DNA of 64,000 bases from the NCBI GenBank assembly GCA_002269645.1, contig NIVC01000841.1, forward strand, positions 370,946 to 434,945. Direction: 5' to 3'. The notes beneath the pieces are model-generated. The model did no database searches and was not told where the DNA came from. It worked only from the letters and a program-made list of their open reading frames with translations. This document shows positions 4,647 through 61,375 of this stretch, piece by piece (within the stretch, counting starts at the first letter, position 1; every line of letters begins with the position of its first letter). Origin of the DNA: Macrostomum lignano. Taxonomy: Eukaryota. Made by a program: the position numbers and the translations under genes.

Positions 4647-5343
<697 letters not shown>

Positions 5344-43100: not shown

Positions 43101-44449
43101 TAGAATTTCTGCTGCAACTGGTCAATGGCCTTCCTCCTATTTAATTAACCCTGGTGGGCCCAATTGATAGTCTGCTGCTGAGTTGCTATGGGTAGCACAA
43201 TCCTGCTGTCCCGAGCAGCAAGCTGTATACATGCCTTATTGGAAAAATAGACTAATCAAGATTTGAGCTATTACAAATCTATATTTAGTGAATGTTTAAG
43301 CATCATTAGGCCTACTTGCATGTTTATAGTTATTGGGTAGATATTAATGGATAAGTATTAAATTAACTTTTTATATATGCAACATACAAGTATATATACT
43401 TTAGCTCAGTAAACAGTTAGAAAAGAATATTATTAGATTTGGAGTTTTTTCTCCATAAAAAATTAATTGTGTTGCTTTATTTAATTGTACAAGTTCCCTG
43501 TTACTGAATGAAACTATAGAGAGTGTTGCCAAGTCTAACAATTAAAGCACTGATTAAAACTATAAACAGGCTGTGCAGCACAGCTAGTGGAGGCGCTAAA
43601 AACTACACCAGCATAGACAAAGAAGATGTAGCTAAAGAGGCTGAGTACAAGCAGCATCAGGCGGATCGCAAGCTGACAACTCCGCGTAATCTCACGGATG
43701 AAGAGAAATTCGCCTCGTCCAACATGCGCCTGATCAAATATCGGATCCGGGATGCGGAGGTTGACAAAGCCGCCCCTGGCTTAGTTGAACGGCGAGTCGA
43801 ACCCGGGACCACAGTGACAGTGCCAGCTAAGGATGACGTCACGGCTTTGTCGGGTGTGCCTGAGGAGCATATTAAAACTCGGCATGTTAGAATTTATTGC
43901 CCCACTAGGTGAGTAACAAAGGTGCTTCTTTTTCTTTAAACCACCCAAAAAATCGCCCCTAACCCACCCTCAAAATCGCCCTGAACCACCTCGAAAATCG
44001 CCCCTAAACCACCCTTAAAATCGCCCCTAACCCACCCCAAAATCGCCCCTAAACCACCCTTAAAATCGCCCCTAACCCACCCCAAAATTGCCCCTAACCC
44101 ACCCCAAAAATCGCCCCTAAACAACCCTAAAGAATCGCCCCTAACCCACCACAAAACCGGTCTCGAACCCAGGTCCGTCACCCAGTCCGGTTCGCACGGC
44201 ACCAAGAATTGGCGCATCGAATTCGACAACCGGGAACGCTGGGAGAACCCGCTAATGGGCTGGACCAGCTCAGCCGATCCGTTATCCACAATGGCCATCA
44301 GCTTCGCCAGCTCCGAGGAGGCCGCAGAGTTCTGCAGCAAAAACGGCTGGGCCTATCATATTGAGGAGAGGCGGGTGCCGCCGCTTCGGCCGAAATCTTA
44401 TGGAGCGAACTTCAGCTGGGACAAGCGGACTCGCAGATCTACTAAGTGA
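40126..44449 (+). CDS. NDUFS4: NADH:ubiquinone oxidoreductase subunit S4 (complex I 18-kDa), about 227 aa (exons 40126-40193, 43570-43908, 44173-44449)
   Basis: Transit-peptide-like [26 protein letters not shown]; [15 protein letters not shown]; [29 protein letters not shown]; [17 protein letters not shown]; both introns phase 2 GT-AG. Confidence 0.95.
40505..41402. mobile_element. Non-autonomous hAT-type DNA transposon, TIR CAGTGTTGGGCACC, 8-bp TSD
   Basis: CAGTGTTGGGCACC at 40505 and GGTGCCCAACACTG ending 41402; flanks ATTGATGT / ATTGTTGT (7/8); TTAAC/GTTAA-rich subterminal repeats. Confidence 0.85.
42263..42561. mobile_element. hAT-type MITE, TIR CATACATGCGCAAC, perfect 8-bp TSD ATACCAAC
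   Basis: TSD at 42255-42262 and 42562-42569; internal GGCCGA and GTCGCA repeats. Confidence 0.88.
43940..44150. repeat. Degenerate tandem repeat (AAAATCGCCCCTAACCCACCC) filling NDUFS4 intron 2
   Basis: About 9 units. Confidence 0.85.
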
Positions 44450-45149: not shown

Positions 45150-45611
45150 CTGGTTGCTGCTGGGCGATGTCGCCGAAGGCGTTCGTCAAAGTGCTCGCAG
45201 CCCTCTTCAGAATATTATATCAAATATTACTCAATCAAAACAGTTATCCACTGAGTGGAGCAGGCGCATCGCCACCGGGGGGACAGGGGGGACATGGCAA
45301 TGCTTTGTCCACGACGACGACAAAGCACGACGCGGTTTTCTGCGTGTTGACCACCAGGCTTTGGTTCAGGGACATATTGTTCAGGGTCAAATGTACACGA
45401 ACGAAAATTTACAAGGTACGGCAATTCAAACAGTTCAGGATCCGGATAGTGGCCAAACCAGTCTACGCGAATCGGCTTCGGATCTTGAAAAAACTCTTGC
45501 CTCAATAGGTTTTTCACAAGTGTGGTCTTGCCGCTTTGAGCCACCCCAGCAAAAATTGCCGACGTGTTGGGGGGAAAATTTTAAAGAGTCGGGGTCTATT
45601 GTTTGATACAT
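45150..45611 (-). pseudogene. Maverick module A: A32/FtsK-like genome-packaging ATPase, frameshifted and truncated
   Basis: MYQTIDPDSLKFSPQHVG.. then, after a frameshift, Walker A ..AQSGKTTLVKNLL; position matches the ATPase of module B. Confidence 0.7.
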
Positions 45612-45640
45612 TTTGATAGGCCGCCCAATCATGCATATAT

Positions 45641-46092
45641 TTATGGATGATGCTGCTTTATTTGTAGACAGTGATTCTGCACCATCAAGTCGTTCTCATA
45701 AAGATTTTTGCTATAAAACAATCGCGCAATATTTTTTTAATAGACAGACCCTCCAAAAAGTGTTTTTCAGCCACAAATATTACATGAGCCCCGCAGGTCA
45801 CACTTAGCGGATGTTATACAGGATGCCGGTTCATGGCCACCTCCACAGGGACATACTTTGCGATCCACAACTTTAATAAATCTGGCACAGGATCGATACA
45901 CAAGGGGTCAAAAAATGTCACGCTCTCATCGGCATGAAGACAAATTAAAGCCCAGTGAGTGCCTGGTAGATTGCCAGTGTCAAAGTTAATCACGTATGCA
46001 GCAGGATAAACAGGCTGCGGAATCCTGTCAACCGGTATAACTCGAACAGGGACAGGTAGTATTAGACGTTCTAATATATCTAGACTATTCAT
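45641..46092 (-). pseudogene. Maverick module A: adenain-like cysteine protease with a premature stop
   Basis: YVINFDTGNLPGTHWALI (His), FFDPL (Asp), then HPV*HPLSVTCG where TAA replaces the conserved Gln before the catalytic Cys. Confidence 0.88.
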
Positions 46093-46143
46093 ATCGGCAT
46101 GAATATAGCCGTTATTATAGAGAATAAAAAAAGATGTTTGTTT

Positions 46144-47682
46144 CTACACGTAGTCTAGAATAACCTGACGACCGCGAGTGATTTGCACAGTATTGTCAAA
46201 GTAGCCAAACACCAACACGTTGATTCCTGCGGCCAAGGCAGCAGAAAACTTTATTTGTAGCGTCAGATTCCCTCGCTCGCGAGGCATGCTATGCCCACCC
46301 AGCTCCATGTCGGGCATGAGATTCCAGGCGAAGAAGCAGTAGCCAGCTCCATAGTCGGAATATGATATGTCAATATCCAGGTCCCGATTCATCTTTCCTA
46401 GACTTTTTAGTAGCATGGCATACTCGCGAGCATAGTTATGAACACCGAATCGAGGAGTAAACGGTTGTCAACACAGGCTGACCCATTCCTTATACAGAGC
46501 CACACTGTCGGCTCCAAATGGTTCAAAATTAAACGGGTTATGTGTAGCCACACCATCGTAAGCACCGCTGTTCACCATACCAACAACCACAAGTTTAGGC
46601 TTTTGTTCAGGAAATATATTGTTGATTGACACGTCTCGAACACCGCCGGCCACTGAAGCATTGTGCACAACAATCGGATAGACTGCATTCTGTTTGCCTA
46701 GTTGTTCTTCAATCTCCAAAGCCAATTAGGGGTTTGCCTTGACGCGGCGCACATGTAGCTTGGCACTGCTTGGCACTGCGAGTACCAGCCGCGCCTCAAC
46801 CCCGTTGGCATGGTTTTCCGGAATTGTGCATAGTTAGCGTAATTATCATATCCGTGTATGGCAGCAGCGTTCGGTCGGATCGTTGGTGACAAAAAAGTCT
46901 AAACTAAGAGGTCCATAAAGGTGAAAGGTGCGTGAGTTTGCCGCCATCGCCTTGCGAGCTACAAAGCCAGGATTTCCAACCACAGCCATTTGACCTCCAG
47001 CGTCCTTTGCGTAGCCCATCATTCTCAGTTGGTTGGTTTTTGAATCGTGACCGGAATTCAGGCACGTGCGAATATAGGCCTTGTAAACGTGATTGTTATT
47101 GCTCGACTCTACGTGGGTCCTGTTGATGGTCAACGTGACATTTTTAAACGAAAACGTAATTGGCGTATTTTTTTAAGGACGTAATTGACCGGCGCAACAT
47201 TCGAATCAGCAGCAAGATTTGTGCCATTAGCCCTCCTAACGCGGGCCTTAATCTCGAGGTCAATGTCGTTAAGATCGATAAGCGTCTCACCGCCAACAAT
47301 CCTAAATTCGACCACGCTGGCATTTTCAACACTGGCAACAGGGTGAACTTCTTCAGTGGTAGTGCTACGAGGGGTGTCCCAAAAGTTCCCGGAATGTCTA
47401 ACGTAACTCTTCAACAGAGCCATGAAATTTCACGCCCATGGTGTCAAATGAAAGGAAATTTTGTCACAAAGAATACAAAGTTAAAATCATGTTGATATCT
47501 TTTTTTATTCAAGAGCTACAGCAAGAAACTTGCGCAAAGGTCAGGGGTAGTGTTACACAACCTCAACAATCTATGACAATAATTTTTTCATCTCCATTTT
47601 TGGAGTTTTTAATTGCAGCAATTTGGTGTGCACGAGGAGCAAATAGCTCGAATTCCGACTTTTTACACAGACACTCAGTCAT
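46144..47682 (-). pseudogene. Maverick module A: double-jelly-roll major capsid protein, several frameshifts
   Basis: CLCKKSEFELF (47682-47563); EVHPVASV..VVEF..IDLNDIDLEIKARV..VAPVNY; NHVYKAYIRTCLNSG; KPKLVVVGMVNSGAYDG..NPFNF; GYCFFAWNLMPD..GNLTLQIKF..FDNTVQI..RQVILDY*; follows the Polinton/Maverick MCP pattern. Confidence 0.9.
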
Positions 47683-47724
47683 TTTTTTTCAACAGCGGCT
47701 TAGTGTGGTGCTCTAATAGTCAGA

Positions 47725-48060
47725 TCATAATATCAGAATGCTGCACTCTTTTTCTCGTTTTTTGTTAGTCTTCTTTCTACGCCTCTGACCACCGCCGCTA
47801 CCTCGTTGTGCGACTGTGTCTTTGAAAGCATCTTTAGCTGCCTGGACAGAGTTGCGCAATGCTGCTTCTTTCAAGTTCCCGTCTTGATCGAGTGTGTCGC
47901 TAACTGTTTTAGCTAGGGCTCGTGTTCCGTGGCGAAGAATATTTGTGCCAAAACTCTTTAAAATTGGCAGGGCAAATCGGGCAATGCTGCCAAACAGGCC
48001 GTTGCCGCGCTGTGCACCGGAAAATACCGGTAAAGCTCCTCCGATCAAGGTTGAAGGCAT
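47725..48060 (-). CDS. Maverick module A: small basic virion core/cement-like protein
   Basis: MPSTLIGGALPVFSGAQRGNGLFGSIARFALPILKSFG..; G-rich amphipathic N-terminus, K/R-rich tail; lies between penton and MCP. Confidence 0.75.
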   Translation of the reverse strand: MPSTLIGGALPVFSGAQRGNGLFGSIARFALPILKSFGTNILRHGTRALAKTVSDTLDQDGNLKEAALRNSVQAAKDAFKDTVAQRGSGGGQRRRKKTNKKREKECSILIL

Positions 48061-48105
48061 ATTGAAAATTAGCTGCTGACTTTTTATTCGTGAAAACTTC
48101 TTTAT

Positions 48106-49246
48106 TTATAGCTTAATTTCACGAATGTTGATGGATAAAACAGTTTTACCTCGAAGAATCCGATCCATTAACTTGCCCATATCGTCACAGATTTGCACCT
48201 CAATGGTTTTGAATGGGTGTTTCACCAACGGTAAGTAGGATGGATTGACAAACTCGTAGTACTCTCGTTCGCCGTATACCTTTTCATTCAAAGGAATTGC
48301 CCTAAGCAGGGGGACTTTGACGTCTCCAACAATGGCAGAGTCGACAATATTTGAATAGATGTACATAGTTTGTATACCATTTGTTAAATCGATTGGTCGT
48401 TTAGCTGTCTTTGGAGTTTCATTAGAAACATCTTCACGAAAGCCGAGAATGGCAGCAAGCTCTCCATGGGTTTCAATGGGTTTGTACTCACACCGGTTCA
48501 GAAAAAGGTTGTAGCTGAATGCATCCACTCTCGTCGCTGGACTTATTGGGAGCTTTGAAACGACGCTCCAGAGCGCTCCATTAACATAATTTAAGAGCTC
48601 ACCGGGCGTGCGGTAGAATCCTTTAGCAATCCGCAGTGACGTTCTAGAAGGCCAGACACTCTTTTCCAATGTAAGAGTCATGGGACTCTCTATGGAGGCT
48701 TCCAATTCTATAGCGAATACTAATTAACGAATTTCTTGGGTTTACTAAAAAACTTGTTACTTCGATATTTGATTTATTTCCAGCGTCATCAACCTTTTTA
48801 AACATGCTACGCACATTACTGGACAGCCTAATTTTCACACCATACCATGATTTATTCACAATCGAAATTTGACCTTCCTGTGAACGCTCTATGCAAATCA
48901 TTGCATTATCGTCTTGCGCATATTTTAGAGCGGCGATGATTGCATCAACCACTTCGTTAGCTGTGGATAGGCCCGCGGGGAGACAAACCGACGCAAACTG
49001 CTTATACGTGGAGGCGGGTTTTTCTTTAACCTTGATGTCAATCACTTCATCCTCGGGAGCGTTGGTCAGGACATCAACAATTCGATTATCGGGGACGGTT
49101 TTGAATTCTTTACAAAAGTAGATCCGTTCGATGCAGACTACATGATTTGGAAAGTGGAGGGTGTTGGGCAAATTAATGCTATAATGAGCCGAATTATTCT
49201 CAAGATAGTGCTCAACGCACGCATTGCTAGGTAGGAATAGATGCAT
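48106..49246 (-). pseudogene. Maverick module A: penton/minor capsid protein, one frameshift near 48.7 kb
   Basis: N-terminus MHLFLPSNAC..YLENNSAHYSINLPNTLHF; C-terminus DLTNGIQTMYIYSNIVDSAIVGDVKVPLLRAI..YLPL..TIEVQICDDMG..GKTVLSINIR. Confidence 0.88.
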
Positions 49247-52062
49247 TGTAATATACCACACGTTTCGGTTGTATGTGTGTGTGTGTGTGTGTGTGTATGC
49301 TTATCCTTGTCTTATGTTTATAACTTCCTCAGCTGGTACAAATGCATTGAACGACTCGGGATAGCCGCGCCAACTAACGAAATGATGAGCGACGCCATTG
49401 ATGACAACATTGCGTCTGTTGTCATCTGTCTGTGTATTGGCTATCTTATACCGATTTGAACTGTACTGCTTTGTGCGTTTGGCTGCTCAATTCTAGCTTA
49501 CCATTTTAGACCCTCCCCCTTCAGTGAGCTGATCAATTTCTATTTATACGAACAGTACTTCTTCGCAATGTACATCGTTCGTCCTAACTACATGTACTCA
49601 GTTCTATAATACAATATAAAGGACCAACGCGTCAGTCAAGAAACGCTGTTTACAACTTGCGGCTCAAGCCAATTCAATCGCTTCGTCCTGATCACAATGG
49701 CGTCGAGGACTTTTGGCCAAATTCCAGAACTTTCTGCTGAATCAGACCTTGAAATCTACGCTGAGCGCATGAACCAATATTTCATATGCAATAAAGTTGA
49801 GACTGCCGAGGCCAAGCGTGCTATCTTTCTTACTGCCATTGGTGAGAAGTACTACAAATTGCTTCGCGACTTGTGTCAGCCACAGAAACTGACTGAAAAA
49901 TCCTACGAAGAGCTGCAGGACATACTAAAGAAGCATTGCTCGCCCGAACCTTCGGAGATCGCCGCTCGTTTCAAATTTCAGCAACGTCTTCAGCAAGATG
50001 GTGAATCTTTCGCTAACTTCTTGGCAGGACTGAAAAACGCTGCAAACCATTGCAAGTTTGGCGAATCCCTTCAGGAGCGGCTTCGAGATCAGTTTTTGTT
50101 CGGAATGAGAAGCGACACTTTCCGCTCTAAGCTACTCTAGAGTTCGGATCATTCGTACGCTGGGCTGATCAAACTGTCCTTGGACTTCGAAGCTGCTCAC
50201 AAATCGTCAAGCGAGATGGCGCACACTTCAGCAACCAATCGAGTCAGCGCGAATCCATCAGTGGCGCGCCCGAGAACACAGTACAACATCAGCCAACACT
50301 CTGGTCCCGCTGGATCAGAGTGTTACCGACCTGGTTACCGACAACTATAGAGATCCACACTCGCGTCAGAACTGTAAATTCCGTAACTCGAAATGCCATG
50401 CTTGCGGGAAGGTTGGCCACATTAAGAAAGTTTGCAGGTCAGCAAAATCTGTGAAACTCCTGGAGGAGAATGAAACCGGGTCTCAGTACGACGAAGAAAA
50501 CTACGAGGAAGAGCCAATATTTCATGTCTCAATGACTTCCAAGTCCCCGATTCTGGTGCCTCTGCAAATCGAGGAAGTGCAATCTCATTTTGAGCTGGAC
50601 ACAAGATCTGCTGTAAGTCTCGTTCCTAAGGCATTCTATGATAGCCATCTGTCTCATCTGCGACTGCATCCGTCCAAGACGACTCTGCGAACCTACACGG
50701 ACCAGGAGTTCTCTCCGATTGGAGAAGTAACAGTGAAGGTCACTTACGAAGGGCAGGAAGCTTCTCTGCCGCTACTGGTGGTGTCTGAAGGCAGCGCTCG
50801 ACTCCTGGGACGCAACTGGCTAACCGTCATCCGCCTAGACTGGCCTCGCTTGACAGCACCCATCAACTCGTTGATCGCAGCACCTAACGATATGGCCACT
50901 GAGTTTGTCCATCAGTTTCCGGATGTCTTCGCCGAGGGTCTCGGTTAGTATCCCCTCAGTGAAGTCGATCTTTATTTACAAGAAAATGCTACGCCAAGGT
51001 TTTACAAGGCGCGACCGATTCCCTATGCTTTGCGTGAGACCGTCGATTTAGAGCTTCAGCGCATGGAATCAGAAGGGGTCATTACTCCAATAGCGACATC
51101 TCGATGGGCTGCCCCGATTGTGCCAGTAGTAAAGAAGGACGGTTCTGTACGAATCTGCGGAGATTACAAGCGCACATTCAACCAGGTCGCAAAGCAAGAG
51201 CACTACCCACTGCCGAGGATCGAAGATTTATTTGCAAGACTGGGTGGCGGCCACAAATGGAGCAAACTCGACCTGGCAAAGGCATTTCTGCAGCTCCCAA
51301 TATCAGAAGACAGCAAACAGTACCTCGTTATCAACACTCAACGTGGATTGTTCAAGGTGAACCGCCTGCCATTCGGCATCTGCTCGGCCAGTGCAATTTT
51401 TTAACGCATCCTTGACAGTCTACTCGGGCACCTCAACGGCGTCCAGGTTTATCAGGACGACATCCTGGTTACCGGGTCTTCACTGGCGGCTCACAAAGAA
51501 AATCTGCTGCAAGTCCTGCACAAGCTTCAAGATCCGGACTGCGTCTCAACGTCGCCAAGTGTGCTTTCTTCCAAGACTCCATCGACTATCTGGGCCACCG
51601 AATTGACCAACACGGGCTGCGGCCGCTCGAGAGCAAGGTCGAAGCCGTTCAGAACGCGCCTGCTCCGAAAGACGTGTCTCAGCTGCGATCCTATTTGGAA
51701 TGCTGACGCATTACGCCAAGTTTCTTCCCAACCTGGCATCAGTCGTGGCGCCGCTTAATCAGCTCTTGTCGAAGGGCGTCAGCTGGCTTTGGGGCGACCG
51801 CGAGAACGAAGCCTTCCAAGCATCGAAGCGAATGCTGCTCGAATCAAAAGCTCTGATGCACTTTGATCCAAATCTGCCGATTCGTCTCGAGTGCGACGCT
51901 TCCGCGTACGGCATTGGCGTGGTTCTCAGTCACCGGGTGGGCGGTCAGGATCATGCGATCGCATTTGCTAGTAAGTCGCTGACTTCAGCCCAGCGAAACT
52001 ATTCTCAGCTGGATAAAGAGGCACTAGCCATAATCTACGGTGTCCAACGCTTCCAACGGTAT
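49247..52062 (+). mobile_element. Ty3/Gypsy (Mag-like) LTR retrotransposon, 3'-truncated: 5' LTR about 49247-49696, PBS, gag, protease, RT, partial RNase H; no integrase or 3' LTR
   Basis: LTR TG..CA then PBS-like TGGCGTCGAGGA; gag 49697-50430 with CHACGKVGHIKKVC knuckle; LDTRSAVS protease; WAAPIVPVVKKDGSVRICGDY, LDLAKAFLQL, LPFG, YQDDIL; LECDASAYGIG, YSQLDKEALAI; stops and frameshifts present. Confidence 0.93.
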
Positions 52063-52273
52063 GCAGCTCTCAATGTGTTTTTGTGCAATAATGATGAATT
52101 CGCGACCTTCGTTGTCAGTACGCACACCCTTGACGATCAAAATAGGGATTGCATTGGCTAAGTAGAGAGGTCCCTGTTCGTCATATTCAATGTCAAACGT
52201 TTCAATCCCGACCACGCGGTTTGAGTGCCAGCTGCTCTCGCTTGACGCAGTTGAAGTCTTGCACTGCCTCCAT
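52063..52273 (-). pseudogene. Truncated unknown ORF downstream of a TATA box, probably Maverick-derived
   Basis: TATAAAAG at 52337-52330; ATG at 52273 (MEAVQDFNCVKREQLALKP, frameshift, VVGIETFDIEYDEQGPLYLANAIPILIVKGV..); cut at the Gypsy junction. Confidence 0.4.
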
Positions 52274-53096
52274 GGCTCTTGATTTTAGAAAAAGTTGCAG
52301 TTACGGGCGCTTGATGCTCCGGGCTGGTGCTTTTATACCCGAGAGACTCAATAAGTTTTTTTGTTTTAATTACACGATAACGAGCTTTTTACGGAGTTGT
52401 CGTTATCGGGGATTCCGGAAAAAATGAACCTTTTGTTCCTATTTTCGGGTGCTGGCGTTGGAGGCGTGTTGAAATCCTTGCTCCAAGTTGTTGGCAGTTC
52501 AAGCTTGACGTGTCGTTACCTTGATGACGTGTCTGGCTACAAAGTTAGCATTGTGTCTCGACCGGGTTGTTGCGTAACACTGCTGGTAGCTATAGCGGAG
52601 CGCGTAGGGCAGAGGGGTGGACAGCAGCGATTTACAGCGGCTGACTGACTCATGTCTCCTCCGCGGGGCCGCCAATTAATTGCGAGGGGCGACTGAATAT
52701 GAAGATTTTCTTGGATGGGTGGGCGCTAATTCTGCGCGTACACCAATTTTGAATATATATGGCCAGTTAATATGGACAGCTAATAATATGGACAGTTATG
52801 GGTAGGTGGGCGCGCTAATTCTGCGTACAACTATGCTGCATTGAAACTTGGGGGCTGGGCGCGTCCGCGCTTCTGCGTACAACAACAGCTACAGTGGAGT
52901 AGGCCGAGCGCTAATTATGCGTACTATATTGTACTGATCGCTTCTGTACGACACAATGTACAAATGGGAATGTACACTGATTACATGTATAATTAGATTT
53001 ACATGAGAGTTACATGTATAAATATCTCACATAATGACTTACATGAATCATAATGAAGGTCTGGATCAATTAGAAGAGGTCTAATGCATTTACGAG

Positions 53097-53405
53097 CTAG
53101 ATAGGCGTTGAATTTGCATTGGCTCTGACACCCACCTTACCTCCAAAATCAACCACTTTCTGCACGATACGTAGTAATCCTTGCTGTAGGTGCACTCCAA
53201 GACTGCTCAGCTCAGAATGGGCTGGTTGGATAATCCCATAGTGCCACAGAACTCTCCCTGGCTTCACATCAAACAGATTATCCCTGTACTGTATCAGATG
53301 CTTTACGAATGTTGTTTTTCCTGCATTCGTGGGGCCGCACACAATCATGCAGCTTCCTTGCCGCAGGCGGATATCATAACATCTTCTACTCACAGTTGAT
53401 TCCAT
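53097..53405 (-). pseudogene. Maverick module B: packaging ATPase, N-terminal part only
   Basis: YDIRLRQGSCMIVCGPTNAGKTTFVKHLI..KPGRVLWHYG..QP; Walker B missing. Confidence 0.88.
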
Positions 53406-53473
53406 CTCTAAACCGAGTTAAGTAAAAAAAATCACGATACTGTTCTTTTTCTTAAGCTATCTTCAAACTCCCA

Positions 53474-53800
53474 CTACATTCTGTCATTCAGATGACTTTT
53501 TTCCTTTGCATGCAGATGCCACAGAATGCACCGAAACGACCGCTTGAATCGAAACTTCTGATAGACAAAATAGAGACAAAACAGACCGCAGTTAACAGAG
53601 TTGCAGCTCTGAATTCGATTCAAATTACAACGCATATGAATTGGGGAATTCCAAACTTCTTTGAGGGTTGTATGTATTACCCCTAAAGTCTTTAGATCCC
53701 AGCCGAGAGAAATAAAAATATCGATTGAGTTTCCTTCACCAACATAGCAAACTACCCAGTGACCGAAGGACACGTTATGTTGTAGCAAGAAGAAAATAAA
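53474..53800 (-). pseudogene. Maverick module B: adenain-like cysteine protease, N-terminus eroded
   Basis: GHWVVCY..IFISLG (Asp replaced)..IQSCNSVNCGLFCLYF. Confidence 0.85.
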
Positions 53801-53819
53801 GTAAATTTACTTTTATATG

Positions 53820-54608
53820 CATCATCTTTCAGATTTGCGAAGATTCAGAACGCATTGGGAAATTTCCATGCGCTAGTCTGTGGTGTTTTCAGCCGGGGTT
53901 CTGATGGAAAATGCAGCATCGCTCGGTAGCAACTTGACATGTAGGTGCAGATTGTTCAACAGAAACACTGGGCACTGAAAGATGTCGCTGAGCAGCGGAC
54001 CCGCATACTCCACCCATCGGGACTCCCTGTGGCTCTCCAGGTGCGACTCAGCAGCTGAGTCGGGTTGTAGGAATCCCGCAGGGTAGAACTTTAGGTGCTG
54101 TGCATCGGATGAACTCATCAGAGCTTTGAAGTAGGCATAGTAGGGATAGAGTTGGTCTCCCCCAGACACAACTCGCTGGTTGATGCTGACGATTACATCA
54201 GAGAAGGCCGAAGATAGCACAAAGTTTTCGGGGTATACATCACTGTCTCTGCGTTCGGTAACAACTCCATCATCGTCTGGAACATCCTCTCTCAACTCCA
54301 ATACCATCTCGAACATCCTCTCTCAACTCCATCACCATCTCGAACATCCTCTCTCAACTCCATCACCATCTCGAACATCCTCTCTCAACAAACCTCCACC
54401 CCCGTCGGACAAGGCGACAGCGAATGTATAGAAAAGAATTAAGCAGATCAGTGTATTCGTCAGCTGATGGATGGCAGTCAAATTCAATGGGAGAGTTTGC
54501 AGCAATGGAGTTCACAGGGTGGATATCAACATATGAGGACTTTTCAATAGCAGTCTGTAATTCGGGAGTTTTAAACTAATTGAGTCGAGGGCTGTATCCA
54601 TAAGCCAT
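53820..54608 (-). pseudogene. Maverick module B: major capsid protein, N-terminal half; C-terminal half deleted; 4x31-bp duplication at 54280-54389
   Basis: FKTPELQTAIEKSSYVDIHPVNS..PIEF..EYTDLLNSFLYIRCRL; VYPENFVLSSAFSDVIVSINQRVVS..LYPYYAYF; GPLLSDIF..LLNNLHLHVKL. Confidence 0.85.
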
Positions 54609-54636
54609 GTTCAAGATAGGGAATCCAAAACACGAT

Positions 54637-54990
54637 TCACTTTTTTCTGCTTGCTTTTTGTTTTCCCTTAGCTAACTTCTCACTTTTTGTTTTGGTTAGC
54701 CTTTTCTTAAGTTTCTTTCGGCTACCCGCATCAGTTTGCTTTTTTGATGTTCTCTTTCTACCACTTCGCCCAACTATCTTCCGTGTCTTATTCTTTTTAC
54801 TACGATTTTTCGGTGCTTGTTTTTTTCTGCTGCTTGATTGAGCTGACTTGGCTGTTAAAATTGACGATGGTGTAGTTGACGGCGGGGGCTGGTATGTTGC
54901 AATTCCTGGGAAACTCCCGCACCCATGCAGTGTGGGCTTTTCGCTGGCCCCTGAATACTGTCGAATCAGCTGTTGATGGTTCATTGAAGG
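54637..54990 (-). CDS. Maverick module B: highly basic protamine-like core protein candidate
   Basis: C-terminal half about 40% K/R; LHGCG site; same position (penton-core-MCP) as in module A. Confidence 0.6.
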   Translation of the reverse strand, partial: PSMNHQQLIRQYSGASEKPTLHGCGSFPGIATYQPPPSTTPSSILTAKSAQSSSRKKQAPKNRSKKNKTRKIVGRSGRKRTSKKQTDAGSRKKLKKRLTKTKSEKLAKGKQKASRKK

Positions 54991-55670
54991 CATTTCTCTC
55001 GAATCTGGATGGTAAGCAAAACAGGACTGCAACACTGCGAGGTCAGTGGACAGCCAAATATATCAAGAAGCTGAATACGAATGTTGTGTAAGATATAATC
55101 ATTTTCTTAAACACTTTGCTCACGTAGCTACCCCATTGGATTTCAGAACCCATCCCAACAGTCCGCAGCAGAGAGTTCCTGTTGCAGTTACTTGGCTCGA
55201 TAATGCTGCAGTGAATGTTAATTAGATCCGTGGATGAGCAGCCAATGCATTGGCTTGACTCATGGCGTCCGGGTTGGATTTTCAAATTTCAAATTTTATG
55301 CCGAAATCTTTATTGCTGCGTCCCATAAGACCGGACTCATCAGCCTCCATATTTCGGTATCCCTGTCACTCATTGCATCAAAGAACAGCGAATCAGAGTT
55401 GGCCAGCAGCTCATTCAGGCGTTCCAGCAGGTCTTTCACTCTAGCAAAGCGTCCGGGTTGAAGAACCAGGGCCTCATGCTCTCTTCCATCTGAGACAGTG
55501 AAGCAGTAAGGCTCGTCAACATTGAACCATGCAGCAGGTGGGTGGATTTCAGCCAGACCTGCCTCATAGTCCACATTTCGATCCAAGTGAATAGGTGAAG
55601 GCAGGTGAAGATTAAAGTCACTAGGAGTACCTTCTGCATTTTCACTGCTGATGAAAATATTTCTCGTATT
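54975..55670 (-). pseudogene. Maverick module B: penton/minor capsid protein, frameshifted
   Basis: NIFISSEN..TPSDFNLHLPSPIHLD..YEAGLAEIHPPAAWFNV; DLINIHCSIIEP..SLLRTV; IRIQLLDIFG..VLLTIQIR. Confidence 0.82.
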
Positions 55671-55699
55671 ACAGGCTAGCTGTTGTAGCTCGTAGCTTA

Positions 55700-56772
55700 C
55701 TTGCACCGACGCCTTTCTTAAGTCCTTCTCATCCACCCAGCCAGTCGAGTCGTAGCCAGCCCACTTGACTAGGTAGCGAATTTTCCACCTCGCTTCTCAG
55801 TCTTTATTACCTTCTCAATCACATACAGTCTCTGCGAGTCTGGTACTGCCTGCAGCTCGTGCTCGTGAAACAGGCCTTGGATCTCTTCTCCCTTCATGTT
55901 TCGTATCCTGTACATGTAACGATAATGCTTTGGAGCCCTGCCTACCACAGAGTACACCTCTTCACTCAACTTGGCTTTGAACTCCTTCCTGAACAGCCAG
56001 GGTGCGTTGGAAATTCTCGCTGCCTGATTTTCTCGGAATTTTGCTTCCCGGACTTCATCTAAGGTTTCTATTGCCTTCCCATCATACAAATTCATCAACA
56101 CTTTTGATTCGTTTTGCTTGCTAACATTTTTCGGTGCCATTTCGATGCTTCTGTGATAAGTGTCGTTGTATGACTTGACTAATTTTGGCAGCACATCAAC
56201 CCAATGTAGAGTGCTTTTGTGAGTAAAGAATCGCCACGTTTTATTTTTTAAGGTTCGATTCCATCTTTCCAAGATGGCTGCCTTCTGCTCACTGTTAGTT
56301 TTGAATGCCAAAATTCCATGGTCAATGCAACTTTGACGAAAGCTCGAATTGACAAATTCCTTTCCCTGATCTGAGCGAATTTTTTGCGGCCTGCGCTTTG
56401 TGCTTTTCAGAAAGCCTTCGAAAGCGGATTTAACTTTCTACTGCTGATTTAGATTTTAGTGCTTTGGCCCAGGCGAACTTTGACAGTATATCAATGCATG
56501 TGAGGATATACTTGTATCCATGGTTGTACTTAGCGAATGGAATCATCTCAACCAGATCCAGCTCCCATTGATCATCCATGGCTCTGACTACAATCGGTGC
56601 TCTGGGATAGTTTCTCCTTGCGGGTTTGTGTAGTGTAAACCACTTGATCATTTAGCCAATTCTTCACACTCTTTTCATTGACTTTGACGCCTCTCTCTCG
56701 AGCTTCATACAGAACTTTATTGCAGCCAGAAAAACTAGCCGCATGCTCTGGACTAAGGAATATTTTTTTCAT
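55700..56772 (-). pseudogene. Maverick module B: retroviral-type (rve) integrase with C-terminal chromodomain, about 3 frameshifts
   Basis: ASFSGCNK, TLHKPARRNY, DDE triad WELDL / IRSDQGKEF / ILERWNRTLK, YNDTYHRSI.MAP, EEVY.V, IQGLFHEHELQ, VIEKVI, IRYLVKWAGYD..WV. Confidence 0.92.
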
Positions 56773-57119
56773 TGAGCAACAAAATTATCTCAGCTAAAGC
56801 ACATTTTTCTTAAGCACTAGTCTAGCTTTTAAGAACTGTGTATTTCAATTTAATAAAGTATAAACTAGCCTGAAAATGAAATAATTTTTTTAAATTCACA
56901 AGACAAAATAATGCATTTTATTAAAACACAAAACCATTATCATCATCATAAACCCCAATTTTTTAACTGAAAATACTCGTAATTTATTTTCTCTGGATAA
57001 ATACAGTATGTAATAGACGAGTAAATTTTTAAACCAAGTAAGCCGTGTTAAATAGACAATGCTAACACCTCCACCAACACAAAAATACGAGCAATTACTG
57101 TTAAATCGTTTTTTAGTTT

Positions 57120-57419
57120 TTACTCCTCATCAGAGTCCAGCTTCGGCAACTTCACTGCATCCTGCCGGCGCAGAGGCCAAGGAAGCTTCCGCTTGCTGCT
57201 ACCACCGCTGTTGTCGCTGCCAGTACCCTGTAGACCGGTAGCCGCACGGATCTGATACCAAATCGGATCCTGCCTCAGGTCGCTATCTTGCGGAGGAATG
57301 CGCCCGATGGATGATGATGATGCCGCAGGTGAAGACCTCTCACTTGCAGCAATGAGCAGTGCTTGATGCAGACGCAGCTTTTCATACAAATTCGAAATCG
57401 TCTTTGCCTTCGGTGGCAA
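57120..57419 (-). CDS. Small unknown ORF upstream of the integrase (TTG start; true start unclear)
   Basis: 99-aa ORF in the same orientation as all Maverick genes; no recognisable motif. Confidence 0.35.
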   Translation of the reverse strand: MPPKAKTISNLYEKLRLHQALLIAASERSSPAASSSSIGRIPPQDSDLRQDPIWYQIRAATGLQGTGSDNSGGSSKRKLPWPLRRQDAVKLPKLDSDEE

Positions 57420-57560
57420 AGACGATTCGAGAATGTACGAGATGTCGTTTGAGCTGCTTCAGTTTCTCCCATTGGTAGAGATTCAAATTGAAGCCAGGGA
57501 TGCCGGGCTTCAAGCCTCCTTCAGTTGGACAAAAAACGCCGAATAGCGAAGAAGCGATGC
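57382..57560 (-). pseudogene. PC4 (p15/Sub1)-like ssDNA-binding domain remnant
   Basis: FAIRRF (frameshift) ..EGGLKPGIPGFNLNLYQWEKLKQL, compared with the PC4 pattern IDIRE.Y..G..KPG.KGISL..EQW..LK. Confidence 0.6.
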
Positions 57561-57630
57561 CTTAAGAGTTATTTAGATATTGATCAGAATAGCTGAAGTC
57601 GTTTAGCTAAGCATCAGAGAAACTGGCCCC

Positions 57631-57638
57631 CTTATATA
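57631..57638 (-). promoter_or_regulatory. TATA box (TATATAAG) heading the minus-strand Maverick gene train
   Basis: About 70 bp upstream of the PC4-like remnant. Confidence 0.5.
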
Positions 57639-57819
57639 TTATCGGAGAGGAGTGGCGTAGGTGTTTGATATAGCTGCTTGTTGGAACTATGGTATTAGAT
57701 TAATGTAGAACCCTGATCAGTTTATTCTTTTCAATGCAAACACGTAAGTTAAAGCAGTTATCCTGATACTCTGTTTAATTGTCACACTCTTTGTTTCATT
57801 ATCTTATTAAAGGTAATGC

Positions 57820-58400
57820 ATTCATTATCTAACGATTTTGTCTCATATCATAGTCCAAATTTAAGAATTCATTATCTAACGATTTTGTCTCATATCATAG
57901 TCCAAATTTAAGAATTCATTATCTAACGATTTTGTCTCATATCATAGTCCAAATTTAAGAATTCATTATCTAACGATTTTGTCTCATATCATAGTCCAAA
58001 TTTAAGAATTCATTATCAAACGATTTTGTCTCATATCATAGTCCAAATTTAAGAATTCATTATCTAACGATTTTGTCTCATATCATAGTCCAAATTTAAG
58101 CATTCATTATCTAACGATTTTGTCTCATATCATAGTCCAAATTTAAGCATTCATTATCTAACGATTTTGTCTCATATCATAGTCCAAATTTAAGAATTCA
58201 TTATCTAACGATTTTGTCTCATATCATAGTCCAAATTTAAGAATTCATTATCAAACGATTTTGTCTCATATCATAGTCCAAATTTAAGAATTCATTATCT
58301 AACGATTTTGTCTCATATCATAGTCCAAATTTAAGAATTCATTATCTAACGATTTTGTCTCATATCATAGTCCAAATTTAAGAATTCACTATCAAACGTT
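57820..58400. repeat. 47-bp tandem array (ATTCATTATCTAACGATTTTGTCTCATATCATAGTCCAAATTTAAGA)n
   Basis: About 12 near-identical copies. Confidence 0.97.
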
Positions 58401-58551: not shown

Positions 58552-59003
58552 TAACTAACCATTATGATAATCTTTATCAATCAAAACAAAGCACACATAT
58601 GGTAAACAGTTAACCACCAACAAACTAGCAAATTCGGCAGGGTGCTGCTAATCTTCAACCTGACCAACTCACTCGCACAGTACATTGCGCGCTGGGCCTC
58701 TCCAATTTCTCCAGTTCAACCGACCCCACGCTCTGCCTTGCATGCATCCCTACCCCGATCGCCCCGTACGCTCGCTCTCCTATCTCCGCACTGTTCGGCA
58801 GTGTTCTGATAACCAATACTAATGGCGCTTTTCAAAAAAATATGCATCGCTTAAGCAATGAAATATTTCGTTGTGATATTGAATAAATCTATAAGTGTAA
58901 AGTCGTTACAAATTTGTGATATATAAAGGTGATAAATAAATTGGCTAAATTGTTTAAAACAGACGAAGTACCACAGCACGAAATTAGCGGCATTGCAAAG
59001 AAA

Positions 59004-61375
59004 ATGTTAGCTCGACTGTTTCTAATTCTTGTGGCTGCAACAGCGCTGACGCTGGCCAGCCAGGGAATGCCTCGCTTTGACTACTCAACGTCAAGAAAGA
59101 TCATGCTGACCTGGGATGATCACTGGGAGGTGGGCGGTTCTAACATGCTCGCCATCCTTAGCAAAGACAAGAAGATCATCATTCGAGTGAAGGTTTCCGG
59201 TGACACTGGTGGCGGTATGAAGCGAATGCTCTTCTACAAGTGTCCAAAAAACTCTGCAGAAGAAAGCATCGATCTCAGCTCACTGGCCACCACATCGACC
59301 ACAGACAGGTGCTCGAGCACCATCTCCTTCCAGGTGTCGGCACTAAAATCGGTAGACGACACGGACTTCCAGCTTACGATGGGGTCTTCAAAGCTGAGCT
59401 ACACAGAGGTGTTCCGAGAGCGCATCGAGTTCTTTATAAAAATTGAATATGCGACTGGAGAATTAGTGTCCAACCGGCTGTTTGTCTGGAGTTTGGACGC
59501 AATCAGCAGCTTCAGCTCGGCATCAACGAGCACCTCTTACAAAAAGAGGTTCCTAACCGATGCAGCCGTGAATTACATGAAAAAAACGTCCACGGCTACC
59601 TCTGGATTCGACAGTATACAGTTTCTAGAGCCGGCAATCAGCCGAGTTCTCAAGGAGGCTCCCGACTTTTTCAAGGCAAAGATGAACCTCGGCTCAATTC
59701 TGTACTTTGATGCTGGCTCCTGCTTGACATTCCAAATGGGAAAGTCCATCATGTTTGTGAACTATAATTCCAAGCTCGATGACGACAACCAGAATTTCCA
59801 AAAGCTCATGAAACTAAACATTGATGATGGAAAGCTGTGGTACTCTGCTTGCGGACTCAGAAATGAAGTCAAACGATTTTATGATGAGAAAAAGCCTGCA
59901 ACATCTATTGGAATCTGTTCGATTGTGTCGTTCTCAGGTGAAGTTGAACCGTACCAAAACACCGAAGCAGTGGAGCAGCGAGTTCCAATTAGCGATACCT
60001 CCTACTCCACCTGTGTCTCGTCTGACAAGGCCTGCGAAGTGGTCCCTGGCATCAGTCCGAACGTGACTATCTTGTCTGGCATGGATTTTACAGCCATCGT
60101 GTGCCCGATCATCTGCAACGATAAAACGGAGGTGTTTCGCTTCTACCGCAACGACGTTCAGATGGTCGGGTCTGGAGATGAATGGACCTACGTGGACGGC
60201 TTACGAATTTCTAGGACAGGGAACATTGTCGAGTTTCCGCACACACTGAGTAACCGTCACTCAGGTGTCTACAGGTGCGAAGCCGGGTCAAAGAGCTTCA
60301 GCTTCAAAGTGAAGGTAATCTCTCTTCCGCAGTTCCAGACTGAGACCTTCGTCTCCGACAGTCACGCCAAGATTACAGGTCTGTTGCCACCAAAAGTGTA
60401 CGCCATCGAAAAAGAGTACGTTTCCTACAGCTGCATCGTAAACTTTGCCAGTCTGGAAACCGTCAAGATCGAGCCAGTGTTCTATTTTGTAGAGACGGTC
60501 GGAGGGTCCCAATCTTGGACAAAGATGACCCTTGACGAGTTCCGATCCAAGGTCAACACAGATGGTTCCAACTTCTTCCTGAACGCGACTTCGGCAGGAA
60601 AAGACTCAAAGCGCTTGACTGCTACGGTTCGCCGTGTTCCGCCAGTGTACACAACGTACGGCACAAACTTCTCTCACAGATTTGTGTGCGACGTGTCCAT
60701 CGATCGCTCCGAGTCTATGATGGTCGGAATGCCGACCTACAAAGTTCAGAGCGGCGGTGACGTCGTGTTCATTCCGAGACTCACTCGCAAACAGTTCGTG
60801 CTCAACCCGAACAACAACTGCTCAGTGCAGGGCTGCGGATTCAGCAAGGGTGCGTTTTTCGAGTTCAGTCTCACGGACGAGTTCATGGCCTACCTGACGA
60901 GAGTCGGAGTGGATGTCGAATCCTACCTTCGACTGGACAATGACCTGCTCGACAATGTCAAGATTCTGTTCAACAACGCGTCGGAGATCTCGACGACGAA
61001 TGCGCCGCAGCGACTCGCTTACAAAATCTACCCGTGAGCAGCCCGGATGTGGCGAAGGAGCTCGTGAAGAGGAAGCGACTCATTCCGGTGTACAACTTCC
61101 GCTATCGGACTGGCTCGAACATCGCCAACCTGAAGCTGGACAAGGAGCGTCACGGAGAACCGATCGCCGCGCTGGGTCAGTCGGACTGTCGGCAGGACAG
61201 CCTGTGCTTCTACTCGACCGACTTCGACATCGGATCATCCTTGTCGTTCCTTCCAGTGTCGCTCACATTCACAATGCCGGAAGCCGCGTCTTCGTTGAAA
61301 TCCGCTGCCAGCGAGGTTGCCGTATTCGCTATGGCCATGTTTGCCTTTCTCTCTGAGAAAGTCTGCAACTCTTAA
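59004..61375 (+). CDS. Intronless secreted or membrane-anchored Ig-domain protein, about 790 aa if one frameshift at about 61030 is corrected
   Basis: Signal peptide MLARLFLILVAATALTLASQG; Ig-like C..FYRN..HSGVYRCEAG..VKV..P; ORF 61034-61375 overlaps the stop in another frame and ends in a small-residue then hydrophobic tail. Confidence 0.75.

Follow-up and report, generated by a model that had tools for sequence, protein, structure and literature searches.

Polintons (Mavericks) combine genes for a double jelly-roll (DJR) major capsid protein (MCP), a penton-like protein, a protease, an ATPase, an rve integrase and a protein-primed DNA polymerase (pPolB) with terminal inverted repeats (TIRs) and a 6-bp target-site duplication (TSD) (PMC8097293, 10.1101/2024.03.18.585575). 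Intact vertebrate Mavericks are described as having no introns, AG or AGT ends and a 6-bp TSD, and Maverick virions had not been observed as of 2021 (PMC8097293). Polintons have been defined by the presence of polymerase and integrase in one element (PMC5499653), and surveys filter on the co-location of pPolB and integrase within 20 kb; in C. elegans, the same surveys list ten loci that have a TIR and pPolB but lack an integrase (10.1101/2023.08.22.554363, PMC11414722). Segmented bidna-like viruses and variation among adintoviruses have also been described (PMC8363768, 10.1101/2024.03.25.586562), and the accessible text of 10.64898/2026.10.13.758929 makes no mention of a segment or a bipartite genome. 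The window analyzed here is a 64,000-nucleotide stretch of Macrostomum lignano contig NIVC01000841.1, which holds two decayed virion gene trains from two element families, A and B. B is an ordinary Maverick family. A, which carries capsid genes and an integrase, is likely (probability about 0.72) one of the two genome pieces of a virus, the other piece, P, having the polymerase and the same ends as A.

The A family occupies about 60 places in the genome, about 31 of lineage A1 and 29 of lineage A2 (counted by eye in a genome-wide list with 150 of 159 candidates scored; copy counts of both A and P take in duplicated haplotypes). The elements are 10-10.6 kb long, bounded by TIRs and 6-bp TSDs, and encode a capsid module and an integrase; one natural copy (G000:C261:112484-122657) spans 10,174 bp with TIRs of about 575 bp and a 6-bp TSD. 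Of the coding A1 copies with two ends, 16 of 20 show the 6-bp TSD, as do 7 of 8 A2 copies. Eleven genes that all point the same way (orf1-5, INT, penton, core, MCP, protease and ATPase) are common to both lineages, and single genes are unbroken in 6-18 of 22 A1 copies. A2 has in addition a Fic-domain gene and one more open reading frame (ORF). The Fic/DOC gene (L097:6044-6532 on contig C976, E 8e-14) has no counterpart in A1. An inverted partial A1 dimer with 3.7-kb arms (C1313:243594-257956) resembles a snap-back product.

The polymerase-less state is a family trait of A. B-type pPolB probes matched none of 39 A regions (whole copies and flanks, some partial), and P-type probes gave no match in 37 of them, the other two matching by a short 5' piece only; three further loci matched in the same limited way. 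There was also no helicase- or primase-type Pfam match in A, where four ORFs (142-250 aa) are without assignment. The integrase is an rve match in Pfam, the ATPase is 30% identical to that of B and the protease is assigned by motif only. A model of the MCP, built from a natural relative (pLDDT 70), matches the MCPs of PBCV-1, iridoviruses and virophages in Foldseek (best E 2e-14), which suggests that it is a DJR capsid protein. Neither orf1 nor orf2 had a usable Atlas match, and orf2 had no PDB match, a model of low confidence (pLDDT 42) and six homologues at 57-64% identity (P0121-P0126); we take it, as a guess, to be a single-stranded DNA-binding protein. In a quick MCP tree of 46 rows, subject to the long branches of such trees, A1 and A2 group with three outside proteins, away from the five other families of this genome that were included, B among them. 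Metagenome and viral collections held MCP relatives at only 31-37%. Closer proteins occur in public assemblies (P0001-P0003 for the MCP, 78-80%, on short contigs; P0121-P0126 for orf2, 57-64%; one on an 8.8-kb contig), and their likeness suggests a third A lineage elsewhere. Between A1 and A2 the pairwise Nei-Gojobori dN/dS, which is rough at this depth, is 0.04-0.16, with dS of 1.4-2.4 for six genes and saturation for three. These low values indicate purifying selection on the capsid genes of an element that has no polymerase.

The polymerase-only partner came from a Pfam pPolB search, which returned many matches of a non-B type. The seven of these loci that were retrieved all lay in elements with A-like ends, six of them with both TIRs. 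A single P exon query places the family at about 90 sites (about 37 P1, about 56 P2 and a few more diverged, counted by eye, with 134 of 134 candidates scored). Whole pPolB-bearing copies (n=11) are 8.8-9.8 kb long and all 11 have a 6-bp TSD. Probes for the capsid module and integrase (A-, B- and C506-type, E<=0.01) matched none of the 11, and the Pfam scan of P covered the longer ORFs only. The polymerase is of the polinton type (PF03175), and its identity to members of that Pfam family from spider and Xenopus is 35-39%. It has a motif that we take to be VSR-like, and its N-terminus presumably resembles a terminal protein and a vOTU domain in its motifs. P2 also has a weakly PC4-like ORF (Pfam E 0.034). 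In a quick polymerase tree, P1 and P2 make up a clade on long branches that takes in none of the sampled resident polymerases linked to capsid genes, and between P1 and P2 the dN/dS is 0.07-0.14 at a dS of 2.1-3.8. More diverged P-like polymerase pieces (31-54%) lie on contigs C3161, C485, C583 and C234 and are possibly a third, older lineage.

The pPolB frame breaks at identical motifs in P1 and P2, and the P polymerase carries spliceosomal introns that are spliced in runs whose RNA type is guessed. Contigs from three RNA-guessed runs of three studies, aligned to a P1 copy, drop 75-81 bases with GT-AG ends. The joints are at 1186-1264 (3/3 runs), 2175-2257 (2/3) and 4925-5001 (1/3), and none was found in pPolB in the one DNA-guessed run. 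The first two coincide with predicted breaks, and one predicted intron is absent from the joints listed. The RNA or DNA type of each run is a guess. The runs were searched with a D-like satellite locus (D is described below), and none that contains it is recorded as RNA. Intact vertebrate Mavericks lack introns (PMC8097293), and their presence in P suggests a long stay in the nucleus, as would be expected if A and P complemented each other only as intracellular transposons and the capsid genes made no transmissible particle. However, comparison of the two polymerase-less lineages shows strong purifying selection on the MCP, ATPase, protease and core genes, and three unrelated segment types are mostly 6.4-10.6 kb long, as a packaging limit would give. 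A purely intracellular life is therefore unlikely.

The ends tie A to P. Both terminate in 5'-ACTAC...GTAGT-3', and the Polinton-type 5'-AG...CT-3' is absent from both. An exact-pattern search found 68 A1-type, 52 P1-type, 57 A2-type and 211 P2-type ends, satellites included, and reversed controls gave 0. Nucleotides 8-27 vary in blocks among the 143 ends in the loci. Four variants of nt 8-17 are common to A1 and P1 (42/64 and 14/27 ends) and six to A2 and P2 (15/20 and 19/32 ends), with D satellites included in the P-ended counts; none is common to any of the four cross-lineage pairs. For nt 18-27, A1 and P1 have seven variants in common, A2 and P2 have two, and one occurs in a cross pair. 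In 42 of 58 elements the two ends match each other exactly over 27 nt. The element on contig C1438 combines a left end of P1 type with a right end of A1 type within a single TSD. GC content also follows lineage (A1 0.44, P1 0.46; A2 0.49, P2 0.53), and the genes of both A and P have diverged between lineages to near synonymous saturation under purifying selection.

These ends bear on whether A and P are unrelated hitch-hikers, with A using the polymerase of an ordinary, B-like Maverick and P using any integrase. Such an arrangement is made conceivable by the nesting of A in B in the window and by the several complete Maverick families in the genome. The monopartite families whose ends were located (B, C84b/C424, C506/C925 and C2158), however, all end in AGTAGT and not in ACTAC; an ACTACTA motif near the C2158 end belongs to the flank and not to the element. 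Lineage-specific terminal variants and the mixed ends on C1438 would also be unexpected under independence, so this explanation is highly improbable.

The same ends are borne by satellites. Five of 20 elements chosen by P-type ends contain pPolB. Most of the others, and four A1-ended elements, are gene-less, 3-9.5 kb long and belong to one family (D) per lineage; the lineage-1 family bears A1 or P1 ends. Eight that were tested are palindromic, with 78-99% of their length in inverted repeat. A third coding segment was sought among TIR pairs without A or P genes, but these were gene-less palindromes except for one on contig C2132. This P1-ended element (C2132:148104-157572, L219) is 9.5 kb long with a TSD and long ORFs, a possible cargo which we take to be THAP/P-element transposase-like. 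An 18.4-kb element with A2 ends (C56) matched no probe.

The two-segment interpretation is based on complementary gene content, shared and exchanged ends, TSDs on both elements, a spliced polymerase and purifying selection. P bears the signature of integration although it has no integrase, and A bears selected capsid genes although it has no polymerase. As in a segmented virus, complementary gene sets lie on segments with shared termini. The wider picture is probably that of a segmented DJR double-stranded DNA (dsDNA) animal virus, with separately integrating capsid/integrase and spliced-polymerase segments, terminal blocks that shuffle within a lineage, and palindromic satellites as parasites. 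In this scheme, P would provide terminal protein and polymerase in trans, and A would provide the particle and the integrase, a division that draws on protein-primed replication in polintons (10.1101/2024.03.18.585575). The spliced terminal-protein/polymerase precursor of P would prime on any linear segment that belongs to the same lineage as itself, at the 5'-ACTAC ends. Through strand displacement and panhandle repair, each copy would retain two identical ends, and segments would exchange terminal blocks. The capsid proteins, protease and ATPase of A would package units of about 9-10.5 kb, and insertion of A, of P and of the gene-less satellites would depend on its integrase. Virions and trans-complementation would both be expected of such a virus. 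The similar lengths of A and P suggest, as a guess, one segment per particle, and the split is likely older than the divergence of lineages 1 and 2.

Several points weigh against this interpretation. Support for it is genomic and from one host assembly, and not from virions, free linear DNA, co-packaging or trans-complementation. The terminal classes are partly set by the first 7 bases, so that only nt 8-27 are independent. The A1 and P1 TIRs differ past about nt 27, and nt 27-50 of A1 resemble P2 and not P1. On two contigs (C2932:62611-69428 and C4072:10423-17245) about 6 kb separates a P2 polymerase from a gene that belongs to a monopartite family, at an equal offset, which may be a nested insertion or a chimera. 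A replication role for orf1, orf2, orf3 or orf5 of A may also exist. Finally, five A1 copies contain a piece of about 400 bp that is 75-78% like the P1 5' region and may have been left over from a parent virus in one piece. It would fit a history in which such a parent, exogenous or absent from the assembly, repeatedly gave rise to A and P as defective halves. Mobile butterfly polintons that lack PolB do have complete, near-identical relatives (10.1101/2025.02.07.637071), and not all candidates were scored in the MCP and Pfam searches. However, there is no A-P pair within 40 kb among the roughly 60 A and 90 P places; the two lists overlap on three contigs only, at more than 40 kb on each (by eye). 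The interiors of the A and P TIRs differ, and the reference copies have no internal tblastx match. The split layout and the pPolB break points are also alike in two lineages near synonymous saturation. An origin as defective halves is thus quite unlikely, and a two-part virus is preferred.

The B family has the features of a Polinton, with pPolB and an rve integrase in one element, AGT-type TIR ends and a 6-bp TSD. Its copy on contig C754 is 16.5 kb long with a 674-bp TIR and AGTAGT ends, and encodes pPolB (PF03175) with Endonuclease VII, an rve integrase with a chromodomain, a C5 protease, a TBP-like protein and a PC4-like protein; the 6-bp TSD was seen in the copy on C114. At L041:8100-8750 on C754, the family carries this TBP-like gene (PF00352, E 4e-25, two stretches) and a weakly FAM76-like ORF. 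At least two other types of monopartite Maverick coexist in the genome (C2529, C3758, C2158, C84, C506 and C925).

In the window, six-frame reading and tblastn with natural relatives recover the two minus-strand trains that the first-pass annotation had described, both in the order penton, core, MCP, protease, ATPase and with an integrase ahead of B, and both decayed by stops, frameshifts and deletions. The motifs AQSGKT, GTHW, GPTNAGKT, GHWV and NCG that it listed are all present in the translations. From A there remain the first 90 of 216 codons of the packaging ATPase (45362-45632, the rest being deleted), an adenain-like protease with one stop and one frameshift (45644-46092), and the DJR MCP with five stops and frameshifts (46144-47682), its predicted fold taken from a natural relative. 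The MCP has an insertion of about 240 bp at 47368-47609 that is not in the copy on contig C2255. A basic protein that we take to be core-like (47725-48060) and a gene with one frameshift, named penton-like from its position (48109-49246), are followed by the 3'-terminal 38 codons of an integrase that belongs to A itself (49304-49417). All are on the minus strand. About 3.2 kb of A is replaced by a plus-strand fragment of a Gypsy-type long terminal repeat (LTR) retrotransposon (49415-52057) with reverse transcriptase and RNase H and weak gag and zinc-knuckle matches. Beyond it are minus-strand remnants of orf2 and orf1 (52058-52506) and the A TIR (52518-53175), a lineage-1 end (5'-ACTACGTA on the minus strand) with its terminus at 53175. 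Both 45360-49414 and 52058-53175 align to the natural A copy on C261, the second stretch being its far end and TIR. A homology ends at 45360 and not at 45150, where the module had been placed.

Homology to B begins at 53176, inside the ATPase gene, in all six B regions compared. The terminus of A at 53175 abuts it, which indicates that A inserted into the ATPase gene of B. The window is thus a nested fossil, a decayed A inside a decayed B, and not a tandem stack; the Gypsy-type fragment and the far end of A lie between the two trains. The B train, also on the minus strand, consists of the first 80 or so codons of the ATPase, interrupted by the insertion (53176-53414), the C-terminal two thirds of the protease (53444-53800), about the first 260 of 460 MCP codons, with a 31-bp tandem array at 54262-54389 (53834-54659), a core-like gene with approximate limits (54660-54983), a frameshifted penton-like gene (54984-55664), a frameshifted rve integrase with a chromodomain (55710-56772) and a PC4-like remnant (57141-57525). 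A 47-bp tandem array lies in the subterminal region of B (57820-58398), and a minus-strand remnant of the TIR tip (58777-58820) ends in an AGTA-type terminus at 58820. TIRs, reported as not visible, are therefore present for both elements. A deletion leftward from 45360 took the rest of the A ATPase and the left TIR, and the remaining part of B is also gone. An expected junction motif for that left half gave one match, a P1-type end on contig C4099, which is not that half.

The junctions from A to Gypsy to A to B recur on contig C2255 at 96-98% identity, and the left break also on C2114; the matching junctions on C2255 speak against a misassembly, which is rejected. A recent duplication is likewise rejected. 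Within the window A and B have no blastn or tblastx match, and identity between proteins of the two families is 26% (MCP), 30% (ATPase) and 34% (integrase), with no significant alignment for protease and penton. The expected contrast between pentons exists, but it is A that has the long one (384 aa), that of B being about 275 aa. Two distinct lineages, separate in identities and in the MCP tree as anticipated, do meet here, although as nested copies and not as neighbors at a hotspot or as a single chimeric element. No B- or P-type pPolB probe matches the window, in agreement with the first-pass annotation. Lack of a polymerase is inherent to A, whereas the relatives of B carry pPolB and the window copy lost it by deletion. 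The proposed genome-wide search for intact copies did recover TIRs for both families and pPolB for B, and the A copies remained without it.

Two other features of the window lie to either side of this locus. A plus-strand open frame of 705 codons with a signal-peptide-like start (58920-61037) lies 100 bp past the B terminus and has no Pfam match. On the other side, a plus-strand NDUFS4 gene (PF04800, 43520-44449) is split by a 23-bp tandem array at 43937-44156.

The polymerase-only partner family is the real novelty. We know of no segmented DJR virus, and the literature search, which did not extend to Repbase, subscription papers and supplements, found none, nor a bipartite Maverick or a Macrostomum Polinton study. 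If the interpretation is true, genome segmentation would extend to DJR viruses. Surveys would miss a split Maverick or bin it as debris, and a pipeline that asks for pPolB and integrase no more than 20 kb apart is blind to it, so the form may be widespread. The literature has not settled how Mavericks without a polymerase move, and the split form suggests an answer. Maverick virions could be sought in this host, a cultured laboratory animal with numerous young copies and spliced RNA of the polymerase.

Compared with known systems, B fits fully within the Polintons/Mavericks (Polintoviricetes, adintoviruses). A and P differ from them in having the genes split over two TIR-bounded elements, ends in 5'-ACTAC and not (AG)3 or (AGT)2, and a pPolB with spliceosomal introns. 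Taken alone, A has the predicted DJR MCP, ATPase, protease, rve integrase, TIRs and TSD of a Polinton but no pPolB, and P has a polinton-type pPolB but neither integrase nor capsid module. Like the butterfly polintons that lack PolB, A is TIR-flanked, mobile and has kept its capsid genes; the butterfly elements are young, lie beside highly similar complete elements, carry transposable-element cargo and have a helper left open (10.1101/2025.02.07.637071), whereas A has an old polymerase-less state, no complete parent found and a dedicated polymerase-only partner. Tlr1 elements and polinton-like viruses also have a capsid module without a complete pPolB, but they have a substitute replication gene (helicase fusion) (PMC5499653); none is recognized in A. 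Yeast linear killer/helper plasmid pairs (PMC13348850) are two linear TIR-bounded DNAs with divided labor and protein-primed replication, but they are cytoplasmic, with no virions and no integration. Bidnaviruses and Drosophila Vesanto virus likewise have segments with similar TIRs and a polinton-type pPolB on one of them (PMC8363768, 10.1101/2024.03.25.586562, PMC4061559). Their genomes are single-stranded DNA in a parvovirus-type capsid, which sets A outside Bidnaviridae by its predicted DJR MCP; A also has an integrase, and both the A and P segments integrate.

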